From NCBI GenBank assembly GCA_964016885.1, contig OZ024742.1, positions 34,658,001 through 34,722,000 on the forward strand: DNA of 64,000 nucleotides, in the 5' to 3' direction. Source of the stretch: Eledone cirrhosa. Its lineage: Eukaryota. The notes beneath the pieces are model-generated. The model worked only from the letters and a program-made list of their open reading frames with translations, was not told the DNA's origin and did no database searches. The first letter of the stretch is position 1. Each line of letters starts with the position of its first letter. A program made the position numbers and the translations under genes. Shown here in pieces: positions 2,789 to 42,512 of this stretch.

Positions 2789-3299
2789 AATCAAAAGCAA
2801 TTTTCACTCTGAAATTCCAATTTCTCCAATAGCACTACATTAGTGCAGTATCGTTTTTTTTATGAAGCTTCCTTTTTTCTATCAGGCTGACATTTCTATT
2901 TCCAATCACGTAGAAGTATTGACACCTCTTGATCGATTCCAGCAGCTCGTTTTAGAACACTTCGTATCTATGACAGGTTGTGCAGCTGTTGTTGTGATAG
3001 CTCTAACATGATTGTTGTCTACTTAATAGGAATGTCTAACCTCAATCGCGAATCAGGAGTCCTTCCTATCAAAGATATTAACATTTTATTCGACATGAAT
3101 CGGTTTTAAAGGTCACCGTTTGTAGCTATTCCATGACCTTATACTTCTTTCGTTTTTCTGTAACCCCATTTCCACCAATATGAAAGTAAAAACTTTTTTA
3201 TATACATAAATATCGATATATAGATATAAATATATAGATAGATGTATAGTATATGCATATAAATATATAAATATATGTATATGATTATGAATATGTATG

Positions 3300-3382
<83 letters not shown>

Positions 3383-3444
3383 TATATATATACACATATA
3401 TATATGTATAGTATGTATATATATATATGTATATATGTATGTAG

Positions 3445-3950
3445 CATATTGTTTTGTTTTTCATCCATTGAATAAGAGTAAGGAAATTTGATTGAAGGCA
3501 TGTCCGGTCTCCCACTTCATTTATGACCTTCTGGAGCTTGGAATCATCTGCAAGGATTTTTATGTTGCTGTGCTTGCTGATGTCGATAATGTCATTGATG
3601 TAAGCATTTAAGAGAAGTCGTCCCAGCACAGTACTTTGTGGGACACTACTACTAACTTTGGCTGGGCTTAATTTTACTCCGACTACATGTTGGGGTCTCT
3701 TTGTCAGGAAATACATTATCAATTGCAGTAACTTTCCAGAGACAGCAATGCTGGATAGTTTTTTCAGTAGGATGTTGTGATCAAGCCTGTCAAATGCCTT
3801 GCTGAAATCAAGGTATATAACATCAGTGTTGGAGATCTCTCCCAAAGCTCTTAAAATGACATCAAAGTGATACAGGAACTGCTTTAGGCAGTCCCTTATA
3901 TTACGGAAGCCATGTTGTTTGGAGTTCAACAGATTGTTGGCCTCCAGAAA
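3445..3950 (-). pseudogene. Non-LTR retrotransposon (CR1/L2/Jockey-group) reverse transcriptase fragment
   Basis: QHGFR, DVIYLDFSKAFDRLDH, VPQSTVLG, YIND and LADDSKL motifs. Confidence 0.88.
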
Positions 3951-4068
3951 GTAAGTTATTCGTGATCTGACACCGTTTCATGTACCTATATTTGTACCGA
4001 TATTTGGGGTGTGCGTTTGTGTCTACATAGTATATATATATATGTATATGTATAAATATCTGTATATG

Positions 4069-5159: not shown

Positions 5160-5850
5160 ACGTGGAAAAACTAGAAATAGGAAAACATACCGTTAATACA
5201 TGTTTATTTAAAACACCACCTCCGTACGTTTCGCCCGGATGGGCTTCTCAAGGGCATAAATAACTAAAAAGTGTTTCTTACATGGCCCGGAAAGTGTTTT
5301 GGGGGGTAAGTTCACGTCAGAGTTCATTCTTCGCAAAAAAGCGTGTTTTGATTTTGCAGTAGGTCAAGGGAGGTAAATCTGGCCAGTGTTAGGGCAGTCT
5401 TTCCCGGACAAATTTTTTATCCGTTACAAGATGTGGTTACACCCTTACCATTGTCGATACGCACAGGGTCAGGTAAGCAACGGTTATTTTGAGACGTTTG
5501 TTTTCTTCACCTGCCCGCCTGGGTCATTTGAAGCTGGGTCTGGGATGCATGGTTAGTTTCCGGATGATTTTTGCAGCGCCTGCCCACCAGGGTGTTAAAG
5601 CTTGTTGCAGGGAGACCCGGTATACGGTTTCACTCCTCATCCTTATCACATCTGAAGAAGGATATTTTTAAGCGATGTGTACATCTTATCGTCGTTTCAG
5701 CTCTGCTGTTGATGAGCTCGTGGGGTGCCGTTATGATGTGGTAGAGCTCCATGAGGCAAAGATCGCACTTCCTCTTGAAGTTGTACGGTGCAGCCCTGCC
5801 GACAATATCCCAGTGCGTGGAGAAGCTTATGTTTAAGTCTTTTAATGATA
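5160..5850 (-). mobile_element. 3' end of a different, GC-richer PLE family inserted in (TA)n
   Basis: ORF 5630-5890(-) has WDIVGRAAPYNFKRKCDLCLMELYHII...INSRAE...CTHRLK, the PLE endonuclease C-terminal signature. An HHR-like motif lies at 5221-5255. Confidence 0.8.
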
Positions 5851-8469: not shown

Positions 8470-9033
<564 letters not shown>

Positions 9034-9040
<7 letters not shown>

Positions 9041-9405
9041 ATATTAAATAAATGGAAACTATATTTATAAAACCATATTTATTCTATTATATATATTTCA
9101 ATGGTACCTAAACTTTGGTACGCTCTCATCGGATAAAATTCAAAATTTATTTTATAAATATTGTATTTTAACGGTTCAAGTTTTTCGTGGATAGTACTTT
9201 GTATTTTATCTGATGAGAGCGTAACAAAGTTTTGGTGCTCTTGAAATATATATAATAGAATAAATATGGTTTTATAAATATAGTTTCCATTTATTTAATA
9301 TCATTGAATATTATTCTCCAGAAAACTGTCGAGTGCTTCTAATCAGTTATAAACATATATATTTGTTTTGTTGAATTACCAACAAATTAAATATCCCTTT
9401 TTCTT
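9034..9405 (+). mobile_element. Short family B fold-back element (PLE terminal repeat only)
   Basis: 9034-9150 is inverted to 9200-9306, followed by a ~95-nt tail. Same termini as the giant palindromes; flanked by (TA)n. Confidence 0.82.
9202..9262 (+). ncRNA. Type I hammerhead (family B)
   Basis: TATTTTAT-CTGATGA-GAGC..GCTC-TT-GAAA-TATATA-TA-ATAGAATA. Stems differ in sequence from 51804 but pairing is kept. Confidence 0.68.
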
Positions 9406-9564: not shown

Positions 9565-10047
9565 AAGAATGAAAAATAAGATAGATTGAGGGGACGGGCG
9601 GATTAGAATTGGAAAATTACAGGTCCATTCATGTTCGGTATCAGGACATATGAATAAATTAAGGTATAAAACACCGCTCTTTATTACGACTTAATTCTTT
9701 TCCGTCCAGCCCGCATTGTCGTGGCTTTCAAAGTTCGAACTATATATATATGTGTGTTTGTATGTGTGAGTGCGTGTGTGATAAAGTTGTTAGAATTACG
9801 AATATAATGCATGGTGTTATTCGTATCAGCTCTTTGTCCATTGTGTTCAAACATTACGAGAGCAAATTTACCTGTCGGATTTGATACTATGAAGAAACCC
9901 AATTCTCCATGTAATCATCTTCTCCAACACTTCTGTCTTTCATTTGCTTCACGTGTTAATTACACACACACACACACATATATATATATGTATATATATA
10001 TGTGTGTGCGTGTGTGTGTGCATGTATGTGTGTGTAGATATATATAG

Positions 10048-10113
<66 letters not shown>

Positions 10114-10215
10114 GTATATATATATATATTTTATTGATAAATTCAAACCCAAGCTAAATGAACAATAATAACGCCTAGGGGTATTACTTCTACTACCACT
10201 ATGACCACGACCACT

Positions 10216-10251
<36 letters not shown>

Positions 10252-10349
10252 AATAATAATAATAATAAAAGTGATGTTGATGGTGAGGATTAATAGAAAA
10301 TGCTATTTTCATCATTTCAAAAAGCAAAACAATTGATACGTTGGGTATG

Positions 10350-10500
10350 ACTATTGGTCGTTAGCATGCTCAACCAGCCGTGACGCTTAAACCAATCAGC
10401 TGTAGTAATTCAGTGAAACTACACACTGATTGGTCGAAATACAGTTTACAGGGCTTTGCATTCTGGAGCCACTTTTCTCTGTATAAAATGTATAAAAGGT
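10350..10500 (+). promoter_or_regulatory. Candidate Pol II promoter: three CCAAT boxes and TATA box
   Basis: ATTGG 10353, CCAAT 10392, ATTGG 10429 (spacing ~38 bp); TATAAAA at 10482 and 10491. Confidence 0.45.
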
Positions 10501-10560
10501 AGGAAATTTACCCATCTCATTACAGTTGAAAATTGCAAACTCGACTGTCACCACATATCA

Positions 10561-10599
10561 TGAACCTGAAGATTGCGAAAGCATGAAAGTACTTGTTCA
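10561..10599 (+). ncRNA. Minimal type I hammerhead ribozyme
   Basis: TGAAC-CTGAAGA-T-TGC(GAAA)GCA-T-GAAA-GTAC-TT-GTTCA: perfect 5-bp stem I, intact core, palindromic GUAC loop III. Confidence 0.8.
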
Positions 10600-10925
10600 A
10601 TTAACACTTAGAATTTAATATTCTATCATACTATTTCATTATAATACCATTATATATATTTTAAAGGATTGTAAATAAAACGAGTAAATCAGACAAAGTT
10701 GGAATTCCTCTTATTAATATGTATATATATATATATATATATTGGTAAACGGAATAGAAAATGCTGACAAATTGTTCACAGTGAAAAATAGTTTAATTCG
10801 GAATAAGTGAGAATTATTAATTGTATTGGTTAGTATTCAGTTTTGGTTTCAAGTTTTACCGGTTGCGCATTTCTAATGCTTTTCAAAAATAATTTTGAGA
10901 TAGAGCGTCCGTGATGTTTGCTCTG

Positions 10926-23645: not shown

Positions 23646-23929
23646 TTTGTTACAAATGTTATGCTACCATATTGGAGGTCTTGTTAACTTAATAAGATCC
23701 ATGGGATGTGAAGTGGTTTCAACTTGTGGCCTCCTGTGATAACCAGAAACTCAAGACACATTTTGAACTATACAGCAAGCTTTCAAGTTTTCGCTTCTGG
23801 TGTTCAAACAAGTGTTTGGCTGTAATATATTCTTCAAAATAAGCCACCTCCTCGTTCTTGGCTGCACATCAACTGTTCCATCAATCTAGGATCTATTCCT
23901 TCCTGCAATCGTCTAATATATATATATAT

Positions 23930-24745
23930 ATAAATGGAAAAAATGAAACGAAATTTCATTTCTCACTCTTAGCACGGCTGTTACTTAAATATAAGTATGT
24001 ATACGTACATAAATATATGTATACAGACGTACAGTAGTATGTATATATATACATACATGCACACATATATATATGTACGTATGGATTTACCAAGCATTTA
24101 TTATAATGCTCGGTTTGTTTGTCAGTGTTGAACAAAAGGGCAACGATGGTTGCTAAACACTGTACGGCTTAATTCGGGATGTTTGTTTACAAGCAAACTG
24201 AGCATTATAATAAATGCTCGGTAAATCCATACGTACATATATATATGTGTGCATGTATGTATATATATACATACTAGTGTACGTCTGTATACATATATGT
24301 ATGTACGTATACATACTTATATTTAAGTAACAGCCGTACTAAGAGTGAGAAATGAAATCTCGTTTCATTTTTTCCATTTATCGTTTTCGGTGCGCCCGGC
24401 CGATTAACTCACTCGATATGCAAATTAGGCTGCTCAGCCGTTAATATGCATAAGGAAAGTATATACTTTCAGACGTTCAATCATCTGGCAGGAAGCTATA
24501 CGGTGATGACGATAGCTAATAAGCTTGAAACTAGTACATCGTTCCTTTGTCAGTGTTGAACAAAAGGGCAACGATGTTTGCTAAACACTGTACGGCTTAA
24601 TTCGGGATGTTTGTTTTCAAACAAACCGAGCATTATAATAAATGCTCGGTAAATCCATACGTACATATATATATGTGTGTGCATGTATGTATCTATATAC
24701 ATACTATTGTACGTCTGTATACATATATGTATGTATGTATACATA

Positions 24746-24750
<5 letters not shown>
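23930..24750 (+). mobile_element. Family D: ~1.5 tandem units of a 428-bp HHR repeat preceded by an inverted partial copy
   Basis: GTCAGTGTTGAACAAAAGGG recurs at 24121 and 24549, and 23930-24120 is inverted to 24190-24380. HHR at 24501-24541 has C3 mutated to A. Confidence 0.82.
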
Positions 24751-24833
<83 letters not shown>

Positions 24834-25398: not shown

Positions 25399-26296
25399 GA
25401 GGGGGGGTGCATTTGTCTGTGTATTTGTGTGTGTGCGTGTGTATGTGTTTGTGTGTGTGTGTTCGTGTGTGTGCTTGAGAGAGAGAGAGTGTCTGTGTGC
25501 GTCCGTGTGCGTTTATTTTTTATTACTGTCGTTTCTGTTGTATTTTAGACTCAACGTAAACTTGGTTCGAGCAGACATGCAAAATGTTCCTAGCCAGAAT
25601 CGTCCCGCTGCTATCATTTTCCTATATCACTTCCTACTTATTTCAAGAATGCAGGGTGTAATTTGGGGAAGATTTGACTACTACTTCTCGCAGTTCGAGT
25701 GAATACGTTGAACCATTTTTGTTGTTGTTTATCTTGTATCTTTTCGTTGCTTTTATTTTTTTGTTTATTTTTAAGAGAAAAAAAAAACAATAAATGATGC
25801 GTGTTTTTCTAATGCTTTATCTTCCTGCTTGAAATTTCTTTAATCGTTCACGTCAAAATTCATTCGGTTTTGAGGAAATAGTTTCGCCATTGTGTCTGGT
25901 ATTATTAATCTGCTAGGGTATCCGCTACTTGTGTGCGTGCAATGTTTACAAAACAATGCAGTATTATTATTAGTTAGTTGCTAGGGTGTTGTTGTACTAT
26001 TTGTGAGTGGAATGTTACAAAGAGACAAAATATATTGATAGTTGCTATGAGGCACACTTTTTTGTGTGTATGGTATTAGTTTGCTATAAATATGATTCCT
26101 ATAACGACACTTCTGTAACTCCAGGGAAACGTCAGTCATAACAGTTTGGTTAAGAGGTTTGTCTTTCAATCACGTGATTTTGGAATCAATCCTATTGTAG
26201 TACAGCTTCATGTGTCGCTTGACCTTTATTTTGAGTGATACATTTTTGGTAAAAGCTTTGATAAAATTGAATATGTATGTATATATATATATATAT

Positions 26297-27215
26297 AACG
26301 AAGGAAATGTGGTAAAGAACCAGGTGGACCATAACGCACCAAAGTACTCAATACTTAGGGTAGTAGAGTGGGTAATAGGAACGAGTAAGACCCCGACGGC
26401 TGAGCTCAAGCCGCTTCGACGGCTAATTCTGGACTAAATGGAAATTTATCCTGGTATTTGAATAGCCGAGCTTCTCAAGGGGTAATTCCATATATGGTCA
26501 AAGTGTTTGTCACAGGGATTGGTCAAAGTTAGTAGTTGAGACATAATAATTCTATGATGACAAATTAGTGGGGGGAAGAGGTAGCTAAACCTGCCAGTAG
26601 GAGAAAGAGGGAGATGGGGTGGAGTAGACCCATTCATGCGTTGGTAGTGCCGGCTACAGCTGGACGTGAGGTCAAAGAAGATACTAGGGAGTGGGAGGGG
26701 GAGGAAGTCGAAACAGTAGGTAGAACAATGAAGGGTAAAAATATAAAGAAAATACTGAGAGTGTTAAAAAGCGAATAAATGTAAAAAAAAAAAAATAAAC
26801 AATTTCTGGTTACTACGACCTTTTTAACACTCTCAATATTTTCTTTATATTTTTACCCTTCATTGTTCTACCTACTGTTTCGACTTCCTCCCCCTCCTCC
26901 TCCCTAGTATCTTCTTTGACCTCACGCCCAGCTGTAACCAGGCACTACCAACGCATGAATGGGTCTACTCCACCCCCTCTCCCTCTTTCTCCTACTGGCA
27001 GGTTTAGCTACCCCTTTCCCCCACTAATTTGCCATCATAGAATTATTATGTCTCAACTACTAACTTTGACCAATCCCTGTGACAAACACTTTGACCATAT
27101 ATGGAATTACCCTTTGAGAAGCTCGGCTATTCAAATACCAGGATAAATTTTCATTTAGTCCAGAATTAGCCGTCGAAACGGCTTGAGCTCAGCCGTCGGG
27201 GTCTTACTCGTTCCT
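26297..27215 (-). mobile_element. Longest family A fold-back element (tail 26297-26376, arms ~26377-26772 and 26820-27215)
   Basis: About 395-bp inverted arms (mirror ORFs 26446-26637 and 26916-27146), a family A tail and (TA)n flanks. Confidence 0.85.
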
Positions 27216-31238: not shown

Positions 31239-31312
31239 TGCAAAGAAATACACAGACACATGCGAATACATGCATATACCCATATATATCCCTGAATTTG
31301 ATCTTTATAATG

Positions 31313-31377
<65 letters not shown>

Positions 31378-31381
<4 letters not shown>

Positions 31382-31548
31382 AAAAGAGTCAGGACCCTGA
31401 CGGCTGAGCTCCGTTCGGATCTAGCTGTTGAAACGGCCGGAGCTCAATCGTCGGGGTCCTGACTCTTTTCCTATTACCCACTCTACTACCCTAAGTATTG
31501 AGTACTCTGGTGCGTTATGGTCTAACTGGTATCTTACCATGCCCTCTC

Positions 31549-31631
<83 letters not shown>

Positions 31632-31820
31632 AGTAAGTAAGAACCCGACGGCTGAGCTCAAGCCGTTTCGACGGCTAATTCTGTACAGAATTAGCCGTCG
31701 AAACGGCTTGAGCTCAGCCGTCGGGGTCTTACTTACTCCTATTACCCACTCTACTACCCTAAGTATTGAGTACTTTGGTGCGTTATGGTCCACCTGGTTC
31801 CTTACCACTTTTCCTTCGCT
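31378..31820 (+). mobile_element. Two family A hairpin+tail elements (31378-31553, 31628-31820) in one (TA)n tract
   Basis: Each has a ~45-55 bp stem and the shared ~80-nt tail; they are separated by (TA)n. Confidence 0.85.
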
Positions 31821-31871
31821 ATATATATATATATATATATATTAGAGAGTGACAGAGAAGAGAGAGAGAGA

Positions 31872-36720: not shown

Positions 36721-37490
36721 ATAATAATATAATAATAATAAAAAAAATTATTGTGTACAGTGCTCAAGTGCACTACAACACATCAAAAGTGCATGTATAG
36801 CAAATAGAATAATATACAAATGTCAGGGAAGTGAATAATGTATGAGTCATGATATACATGTGTGCGTGTGTATAGAGGGGGATATCAGGTGTAGTGTTGG
36901 CGAATCTCAGGAAGCATGCAATTTTTTTCATGGTACTCCCTGTTTGGGTTTTTAGAGGTTGGCAGGTCTGCCTTTTATAAAATTTACTTAAGGTGGGTCA
37001 ACACCTCACTTACTGATTTTTTTTTAAATCTTAATTTGCCACAAGGGGAAATGAGGGGAAATGTTCGAGGCAGGTTACAAAATGTTGAGTGTAGGATTGA
37101 AATTTAGCGAAATGAAATGAAAGGCAAAATTAAAATAGTAAAAGGTCCCATGAGGAGGACTGTCACTTTGGACAAGCTAAGGAAGCGCTCAGATCTAGGA
37201 TTACTTTTAGGAATATCCTAGATACGAAAGGCATGTGTCATTTCACAGCTGCCATTCCCCATATGGAAAAAGGTCAATTTTTACGAGCCATGGTCACCAT
37301 TTTCACCCATTTTGCCAAAATAAAAAATTTCTAGAGGACAGCAACTCACCCTTACCCCCCCCCTCTCTCTCTCTCTTCACCTTATTCTCTACTGATAATA
37401 ACAATGAGAAAAATTGGTTTTCCTTTTAGCAACAACTTCAACACAATTTCGCAAACGTTTCATTAAAACATCTCAATATCTTGAGTGTAT

Positions 37491-37587
<97 letters not shown>

Positions 37588-37612
37588 TACACACACACAT
37601 ATATATATATAT

Positions 37613-37912
37613 GTAACGAAGGAAGTGTGGTAAGGAACCAGATGGACCATAACGCACCAGAGTAGTCAATACTTAAGGTAGTAGAGTGGGTTATATATAT
37701 ATATATAGCAGTAGATGTGACATAATCACAGCTTAAAACATTCATAGCGAGACTTAAATATAGTTATTATACATAAATATATCATATATGCCTACATAAA
37801 CACCTCTTTCACCGTCTTTCTCCCCTCTCTCTCTCTCCATCTCTCTCACTCACACACTTTCTCTCCCCCTCTCTCACCCCTCTCTCTCTTTCTCTTTCTC
37901 TCACTGTATACA

Positions 37913-37953
<41 letters not shown>

Positions 37954-38143
37954 CGAAGGAAAAGTGGTAAGGAACCAGGTGGACCATAACGCACCAAAGT
38001 ACTCAATACTTAGGGTAGTAGAGTGGGTAATAGGAACGAGTAGGACCCCGACGGCTGAGCTCAAGCCGTTTCGACGGCTAATTCTGGACTCCAGAATTAG
38101 CTGTCGAAACGGCTTGAGCTCAGCCGTCGGGGTCCTACTCGTT

Positions 38144-38146
<3 letters not shown>
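37613..38146 (-). mobile_element. Family A tail-only copy (37613-37692) and full hairpin copy (37951-38146)
   Basis: Reverse complement of the family A tail and hairpin; (TA)n flanks. Confidence 0.82.
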
Positions 38147-38193
<47 letters not shown>

Positions 38194-39368: not shown

Positions 39369-39442
<74 letters not shown>

Positions 39443-39642
39443 GATGACAAGAGTATGGACCCCGACGGCTGAGCTCCGGCCGTTTCGACAGCTAGATCCG
39501 ACCATTCGGATCTAGCTATCGAAACGGCCGGAGCTCAGCCGTAGGAGTCTTGACTCTTTTCCTATTACCCACTCTACTACCCTAAGTATCGAGTACTCTG
39601 CTGTGTTATGGTCCACCTGGTTCCTTACCACACCCTCTTTGT

Positions 39643-39645
<3 letters not shown>
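39443..39645 (+). mobile_element. Family A hairpin+tail element
   Basis: CCCGACGGCTGAGCTCCGGCCGTTTCGA...TCGAAACGGCCGGAGCTCAGCCGT plus tail. Confidence 0.82.
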
Positions 39646-39700
<55 letters not shown>

Positions 39701-39805
39701 GATACATACACGCGCACACACATACACAAAAATATATATGTGTGTGTGTGTATGTATATATATGTATGTATATGTGTGTGTATGTGTGTGTGTATGTGTG
39801 TGTGT

Positions 39806-42173: not shown

Positions 42174-42252
<79 letters not shown>

Positions 42253-42254
42253 TA

Positions 42255-42448
42255 TAGGAAAATGTTTAACCCCGACAGCAGAGCTCAAGCCGTTTCGACG
42301 GCTATTTCTGGAGTCCAGAAATACCCTTCGAAACGGCTTGAGCTCTGCCGTCGAGGTTAAACATTTTCCTATTACCCACTCTACTACCCGAAGTATTGAG
42401 TACTCTGGTTCGTTATGGTCCATCTGGTTCCTTACCACAATTCCTTTG

Positions 42449-42451
<3 letters not shown>
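42255..42451 (+). mobile_element. Family A hairpin+tail element (a deleted relative is at 45549-45680)
   Basis: GGAAAATGTTTAACC...GGTTAAACATTTTCC plus tail in (TA)n. Confidence 0.82.

Positions 42452-42512
<61 letters not shown>

Follow-up and report, generated by a model that had tools for sequence, protein, structure and literature searches.

Promoter-like CCAAT/TATA module upstream of a type I hammerhead motif in a putative solo pseudo-LTR of a Hydra-clade PLE from Eledone cirrhosa

Background

The closest described counterparts of the locus reported here are the type I hammerheads of Hydra-clade PLEs, e.g. Penelope-3_HM, Penelope-5_HM and Hydra-1_cRog as tabulated in PMC8557442 File S2, which show the arrangement CUGANGA-U ... 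U-GAA, a U·U mismatch at the base of stem II, a TGC/GCA stem II, U17 and a short tail leading into (TA)n, in elements with a linked ORF. Hydra-clade PLEs favour insertion into (TA)n (PMC8557442 File S1), a Hydra family is known from O. bimaculoides (PMC8557442), and Octopus vulgaris has numerous PLEs with recent activity (PMC13282606). The minimal hammerheads of metazoan PLEs described by Cervera and de la Pena (2014, PMC4209133) have a short helix I, a long helix II and a palindromic helix III, are presumed to act as dimers and are mostly single dispersed motifs of truncated PLEs; their standard form retains the G10.1-C11.1 pair after one extra nucleotide.

Related promoter arrangements have been described in Penelope elements and in a plant retrozyme. 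In the Drosophila virilis Penelope pLTR (pseudo-LTR) the promoter is internal and TATA-less and is accompanied by an intron (416-491) that begins 46 bp past the start site (PMC2377424), with the ribozyme at 496 (PMC4209133 supplement). The Penelope pLTRs of Adineta vaga, which also occur as solo copies, contain a putative TATA box and Inr, and no CCAAT boxes are seen in them as presented in PMC3846280. The plant LTR retrozyme NbRZ1 has its promoter upstream of the start site and a type III ribozyme, located in a true LTR, that functions in a reporter from one copy alone and strips the 5' leader in vivo (PMC12029980).

Here we analysed 64,000 nucleotides of E. cirrhosa DNA (contig OZ024742.1, positions 34,658,001 to 34,722,000), hereafter the window. 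A first-pass annotation had described three CCAAT boxes and two TATA motifs directly upstream of an intact minimal hammerhead, read as a solo pseudo-LTR or retrozyme unit whose transcript would remove its own capped leader. The locus shares with the Hydra-clade hammerheads the type I motifs listed above and has a putative short tail into (TA)n, but lacks a linked ORF, and its CCAAT cluster has no counterpart detectable by eye in the 3' ends of six Hydra-clade consensus sequences. With the metazoan minimal hammerheads it has in common the short helix I, the palindromic helix III and the presumed dimer, whereas the G10.1-C11.1 pair is missing and helix II is short. As in D. virilis Penelope, only a short stretch separates the predicted start site from the ribozyme downstream of it, a TATA box and an Inr are combined as in A. 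vaga, and the promoter motifs precede the start site as in NbRZ1; the motifs are of the upstream CCAAT/TATA type and no intron is evident, unlike in Penelope.

Results

Table 1. Features of the locus and broken PLE frames in the window (positions counted from the first nucleotide of the window)
Feature	Position	Strand	Remarks
(TA)n tract	10038..10129	.	TRF; candidate 5' insertion site, putative boundary
Unique sequence with (AAC)n/(AAT)n	10130..10339	+	possibly the upstream portion of the 3' UTR, membership uncertain; without homologs elsewhere in the 64 kb
(AAC)n/(AAT)n tract	10216-10268	+	inside the unique sequence 10130..10339
CCAAT box 1	10353..10357	- (ATTGG)	imperfect extended consensus; in predicted hairpin 10340-10374
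CCAAT box 2	10392..10396	+	full extended consensus; 5' arm of hairpin 10391-10434
CCAAT box 3	10429..10433	- (ATTGG)	full extended consensus; 3' arm of hairpin 10391-10434; at about -88 from the predicted start
First TATAAAA	10482..10488	+	does not fit TATAWAWR
TATA box TATAAAAG	10491..10498	+	second TATAAAA; fits TATAWAWR
Initiator-like TCATT	10517..10521	+	predicted +1 is A10519; distance to the first T of the TATA box 28 nt
Type I hammerhead	10561..10599	+	Hydra-PLE style; cut predicted after U10594 (CUU triplet)
Stem I	10561-65/10595-99	+	5 bp
Core CTGAAGA; GAA; H17	10566-72; 10585-87; 10594	+	H17 is T
Stem II	10574-76/10581-83	+	3 bp, GAAA loop; base closed by the U10573·U10584 mismatch
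Helix III	10588-93	+	loopless 6-nt palindrome AGUACU; 8 nt counting A14 and U17
Putative pLTR 3' tail	10600..10650	+	putative boundary at a short (TA)4 at 10651, 56 nt past the cut
AATAAA	10675		
Broken Hydra-type PLE ORFs	49271-49965; 54432-55418; 55475-56491; 5659-5848	-; -; +; -	thumb region, CxCX5C linker, GIY-YIG

The hammerhead (Table 1) has a complete core, i.e. C3-A9, G12-A14, A15.1-U16.1 and H17, and both stems I and II. Using a strict hammerhead descriptor, we found two sites in the window (10566+ and 52361-) and none in 300 local dinucleotide shuffles. Its start 63 nt past the second TATAAAA and the predicted cut site agree with the first-pass annotation, which had put the motif about 60 nt away. 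The term intact minimal hammerhead has to be divided: the type I motif is intact, but the U·U mismatch replaces the G10.1-C11.1 pair and the standard minimal PLE form is not matched. Likewise, the palindrome of helix III is real but longer than the GUAC reported before. Rfam hammerhead models did not match the focal site at the gathering score or at E<=10; across the window Rfam gave 0 matches at gathering, all other hammerhead candidates included, and nine unrelated weak matches at E<=10. Four ribozymes aligned with MAFFT gave alignments of too low quality to support a covariance model.

To place the motif, we made our own count over the 26 Hydra-clade rows tabulated by Craig et al. 2021 (PMC8557442 File S2). 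A U between A9 and stem II together with a U before GAA is present in 14 of the 26 rows, U at position H17 in ten, and the U·U combined with a stem II opening with TGC and ending with GCA in eight. Judged by these rows, U·U and U17 are common Hydra-clade traits without being universal; the U·U also occurs beyond Hydra elements, in the axolotl retrozyme Amex2 (PMC7229834). In all 26 rows helix III starts with AC and ends with GT around a loop of 1-3 nt, compared with the loopless AG/CT found here; the 15.2-16.2 pair, C-G in every row, is swapped to G-C at our locus with pairing kept. The 3-bp stem II differs from the usual Hydra-clade form and is shared with Penelope-9_HM and with one locus from a bacterial metagenome assembly, designated L101.

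L101 (JAAEPJ010000185.1, 2-337) was obtained in a degenerate hammerhead pattern scan of prokaryotic genomes, which yielded at least 120 loci (about 130 estimated) compared with 104 expected by chance. The full-topology filter was passed by two of the 120 loci listed, L101 and L027. In L101 the same core and a 3-bp TGC-N4-GCA stem II lie about 110 nt past a Hydra-type GIY-YIG C-terminus, and the endonuclease end is 69% identical to P0001 over 64 aa (E 8e-26); it sits on a 1,268-bp contig of a bacterial MAG, probably eukaryotic DNA that was assembled along with it. A prokaryotic origin of the ribozyme was rejected, as the numbers from the scan are at chance level, L101 is a PLE end and L027 resembles a chance match in GC-rich sequence. 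Since L101 carries the same core and the same 3-bp stem II, we read the short stem as a natural form and not as decay. Taken by its sequence traits, the ribozyme element is probably a Hydra-clade PLE end.

The promoter-like module was evaluated against the NF-Y (RRCCAATSR), TATA and Inr consensus sequences. Of the CCAAT boxes, the second and third match the NF-Y consensus in its extended form and the first does not. The even spacing of the boxes (39 nt and 37 nt between pentamers) and the duplicated TATAAAA noted in the first pass were found again, with the addition that two of the three boxes are inverted. Three bare CCAAT pentamers are weak evidence alone, being matched in 908 of 20,000 shuffles, and a second cluster of three within 100 nt exists in the window at 2817-2902. 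The complete layout is rarer. With criteria set post hoc, a TATA box with at least one strong CCAAT box upstream was found in 26 of 20,000 shuffles, the same with an Inr-like site in three, and the layout with two strong CCAAT boxes in none. The layout of the promoter motifs is thus non-random. Moreover, in a window-wide census (rows 1-21, an indexing artefact, and 42174-42248, a (TA)n tract, were dropped) the module was the sole site combining TATA, strong CCAAT and Inr within the 64 kb; the single minus-strand row (4162) has no Inr. A strong CCAAT box is absent within 250 nt upstream of all nine other hammerheads of the window.

The hairpin 10391-10434 has a z of -2.95 and was reached in 1 of 200 shuffles. 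Since the two strong CCAAT boxes are its arms, they are perhaps not independent and may represent one event instead of two. We found no report of CCAAT boxes in PLE pLTRs in the incompletely covered literature, and two 9-nt extended-CCAAT strings gave 0 matches in the Naiad, Chlamys and Hydra consensus files, where line breaks can hide matches. The CCAAT cluster is possibly the one feature unreported so far.

The limits of the element are putative. It is flanked by (TA)n on both sides (Table 1), which is ubiquitous in the window, and two other hammerhead copies of the window end 48-49 nt past their cut, comparable to the 3' tail proposed here. The BLAST check for copies and tandem units suggested with the first annotation gave none within the 64 kb: no second copy was detected by BLAST, nhmmer searches with seven sub-parts returned only self and microsatellite matches, and TRF found no tandem repeat containing the ribozyme. 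The statement that the locus has no fold-back stands insofar as no inverted duplicate of the element was found in the window; the local hairpin around boxes 2 and 3 does exist. As stated before, there is no ORF in the element, the nearest PLE ORF remnant (5659-5848) lying about 4.7 kb away on the opposite strand; a missing ORF would be expected after 5' truncation. Scanning 150 of about 196 filtered short frames for host exons gave two sub-cutoff Pfam matches only.

A tRNA-derived SINE with a hammerhead, as in Schistosoma, was considered and rejected: ARAGORN predicted 0 tRNA genes, i.e. no polymerase III head, with the caveat that a decayed tRNA head could escape it. Beyond the cut, the minus strand of 10600-10700 shows a faint likeness to the main hammerhead family of the window (see below), tail to tail with the focal element, but without significance in nhmmer (E 7.5). 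With two references, 3-4 of 2,880 control windows attained its alignment score of 52; with the other two, 399-467 of 2,880 did. Should this putative remnant be genuine, its helix III would account for the (TA)4 at 10651, which would then be no target site.

Folding computations bear on whether the ribozyme could act alone. The monomer with stems I and II is at -5.0 kcal/mol and closure of helix III raises this to +0.3, a cost of 5.3 kcal/mol; within the predicted transcript the pair probability of stem I is 0.33-0.42. The catalytic dimer was computed at -15.4 kcal/mol, whereas each monomer is at about -5. In the MFE dimer, at -18.0 kcal/mol, the catalytic-dimer helices are joined by A14-U17 pairs. 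In these models helix III closes only in the dimer, which together with the palindrome supports the dimeric cleavage implied in the first pass. Among five helix III palindromes of the window (10588, 52332, 34674, 51852, 9534) the best partner was in each case the palindrome itself, with computed duplex values of -1.7 to -4.8 for self and -0.6 or weaker for cross pairing in the five families. The modelled duplexes suggest that dimerisation is family-specific through the helix III palindromes.

The predicted leader, from A10519 to the cut, is 76 nt long, near the ~70 nt given before, so that the geometry of leader removal holds. A lone copy would be unlikely to shed this leader efficiently, because helix III needs the dimer and CUU is a poor triplet, ranked last among NUH triplets (PMC8879150). 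Published tests suggest weak activity: cleavage of a single S. mansoni min-HHR was undetectable (PMC4209133) and eight of nine Xenopus dimers did not cleave (bioRxiv 10.64898/2026.07.22.740005). The Anolis PLE ribozyme required protein, insertion in vitro proceeded without it, and RNA-seq showed no ends where it would cut (PMC11167929).

Overall, the window consists of AT-rich DNA of animal type, dense in microsatellites and short interspersed repeats, and contains ten hammerhead candidates, three of which (10566, 52361, 34702) share U·U and U17. A relaxed-core scan added nothing and recovered just four of the ten. The main hammerhead family, in which helix II is long and the palindrome is AUAUAUAU, is located at 9210+, 43999-, 47447-, 51812+ and 57829+, with two decayed copies at 53164-53001 (-) and 9145-9030 (-). 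It marks Hydra-type PLE 3' ends, often as inverted fold-back pairs (47343-51916; about 53000-57900; 8979-9311). The broken Hydra-type ORFs (Table 1) carry CxCX5C, CxxC and CxH motifs and are about 36-44% identical to unnamed database proteins; Pfam recognised none of five Hydra-type frames. Main-family ribozymes lie 1.3-1.8 kb past the ends of these ORFs, which go with a different hammerhead family than the focal one. Because 3' UTRs in the window can be long, an ORF-less end of 400 nt is unsurprising.

Several further loci were recorded. A second U·U/U17 hammerhead, at 52320-52460 (-), has a loopless ACUAGU and is preceded by the octamer ATGCAAAT at a distance of 88 nt and by TATATAA at about 45 nt, so that a promoter-like module again precedes a ribozyme; its downstream tail recurs at about 23900-24800, 58000-58170 and 63300-63780. 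Other hammerhead candidates are of the U·U type with an imperfect palindrome (34702-), of the long-helix type (38359-) and of the classic minimal type with G10.1-C11.1 and ACGU (9560-). A decayed reverse transcriptase piece at 3285-3977 (-) matched Pfam RVT_1 (E 1e-8) and did not match the Hydra-PLE profile. A GGT/GAT-type trinucleotide repeat of about 2.6 kb at 58600-61250 has extreme GC skew and long spurious open frames. In addition, an abundant short repeat (26271-26435, 31304-31842, 37488-38191, 39426-39800, 42181-42506, 45516-45705), without a hammerhead in our scans and often forming palindromic fold-backs between (TA)n tracts, possibly represents the ends of another PLE type.

Discussion

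We consider the locus to be, with somewhat better than even confidence, the solo 3' end (pLTR) of a 5'-truncated Hydra-clade PLE or of a non-autonomous derivative, in which the CCAAT/TATA module is likely the element's own RNA polymerase II promoter. The solo pseudo-LTR of the first-pass annotation is thereby supported and, through the U·U/U17 rows and L101, narrowed to the Hydra-clade type. Rather unlikely is a chimera, in which a Hydra-PLE hammerhead with a short tail landed just downstream of CCAAT and TATA motifs that belong to an unrelated host promoter or to a DNA element rich in hairpins. It agrees with the absence of the module at the other hammerheads, the location of the CCAAT boxes within two hairpins and a region packed with unrelated repeat ends (hammerheads 9210, 9560 and 10566). 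However, the window's only full promoter site is on the same strand as one of ten hammerhead cores and precedes it by 47 nt (Inr) to 75 nt (TATA), an adjacency expected by chance in about 1% on a rough estimate; neither (TA)n nor a duplicated target site separates promoter and ribozyme, and the frames scanned contained no convincing host exon. The retrozyme part of the first annotation received weak support. A monomer of a tandem non-LTR retrozyme making circular RNA would fit the 300-520 nt size, the low GC and the absence of an ORF (PMC7229834), monomers often occur singly, and pLTRs are the source of retrozymes (bioRxiv 10.64898/2026.07.22.740005). The line between such a monomer and a solo pLTR is in part a matter of naming; nevertheless the ribozyme lies outside any tandem repeat of the window, lacks a second copy there and is of the PLE type, not of the canonical 6-bp/4-bp type, and we regard this origin as distinctly unlikely.

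Domestication of a single-copy unit, with a host promoter and a ribozyme conserved in the transcript in order to limit expression or to yield a short capped RNA, seems very improbable. The core positions are all intact, 15.2-16.2 are swapped but paired and the promoter layout is clean, yet a young insertion explains the intactness equally well, monomer cleavage is predicted to be poor and neither a downstream exon nor an ORF was found. CCAAT and TATA motifs are typical of LTR promoters, and with the AATAAA at 10675 they recall a solo LTR of an LTR retrotransposon, with TG...CA ends and CCAAT/TATA in U3, that bears a hammerhead. This last explanation is hardly credible: just four TG...CA pairs with flanking repeats of 4 bp were found, none of them convincing and two of low complexity, and there were none with 5-6 bp, and LTR retrozymes have type III ribozymes.

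For the preferred reading, a truncated Hydra-clade PLE end, the life cycle could be as follows. In the parent tandem arrangement, transcripts of the next copy would start in this pLTR at about 10519, as pLTR promoters of tandem PLEs transcribe the following copy (review PMC6765202). According to published models, cleavage would occur only when two copies of the family pair through their AGUACU palindromes; in one transcript spanning two pLTRs the ribozymes would pair and a unit-length RNA would be released. Because the ribozyme needs a partner, the capped RNA would usually remain whole and translatable. Sequence from either side of the cut is present in the genomic copy, and the template would therefore have been uncut or circular RNA, reverse-transcribed into (TA)n with 5' truncation to leave an ORF-less copy. 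With one ribozyme per RNA, a solo copy would need a partner in trans, and a lone copy would at most yield read-through RNA into the flanking DNA that is rarely cleaved.

Conclusions

A start site just upstream of a ribozyme is not new, as Penelope and NbRZ1 have such sites, and solo pLTRs and a TATA box with an Inr within a pLTR are likewise already published. Single hammerheads of truncated PLEs number thousands in invertebrate genomes and there are ten candidates in this window alone, so that the locus as it stands carries little weight. The standing of the CCAAT cluster depends on its conservation among copies. Should other copies retain the CCAAT/TATA block, a PLE would have a promoter of the upstream type, in contrast to the internal TATA-less promoter of Penelope, the one dissected case; upstream promoter elements are perhaps later arrivals (Schostak et al., PMC2377424). 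More speculatively, and in our estimate unlikely, the locus could represent an undescribed Hydra-clade family with an LTR-style NF-Y/TATA promoter in its pLTR, whose solo copies give capped RNAs that are decapped only when transcripts of the same family meet. If true, the family palindrome would gate cleavage as a self-recognition code, akin to the dimer-initiation sites of retroviruses. Furthermore, a compact promoter-ribozyme cassette with a predicted start would be handy for testing in vivo cleavage by PLE hammerheads and their possible dependence on a partner of the same family.
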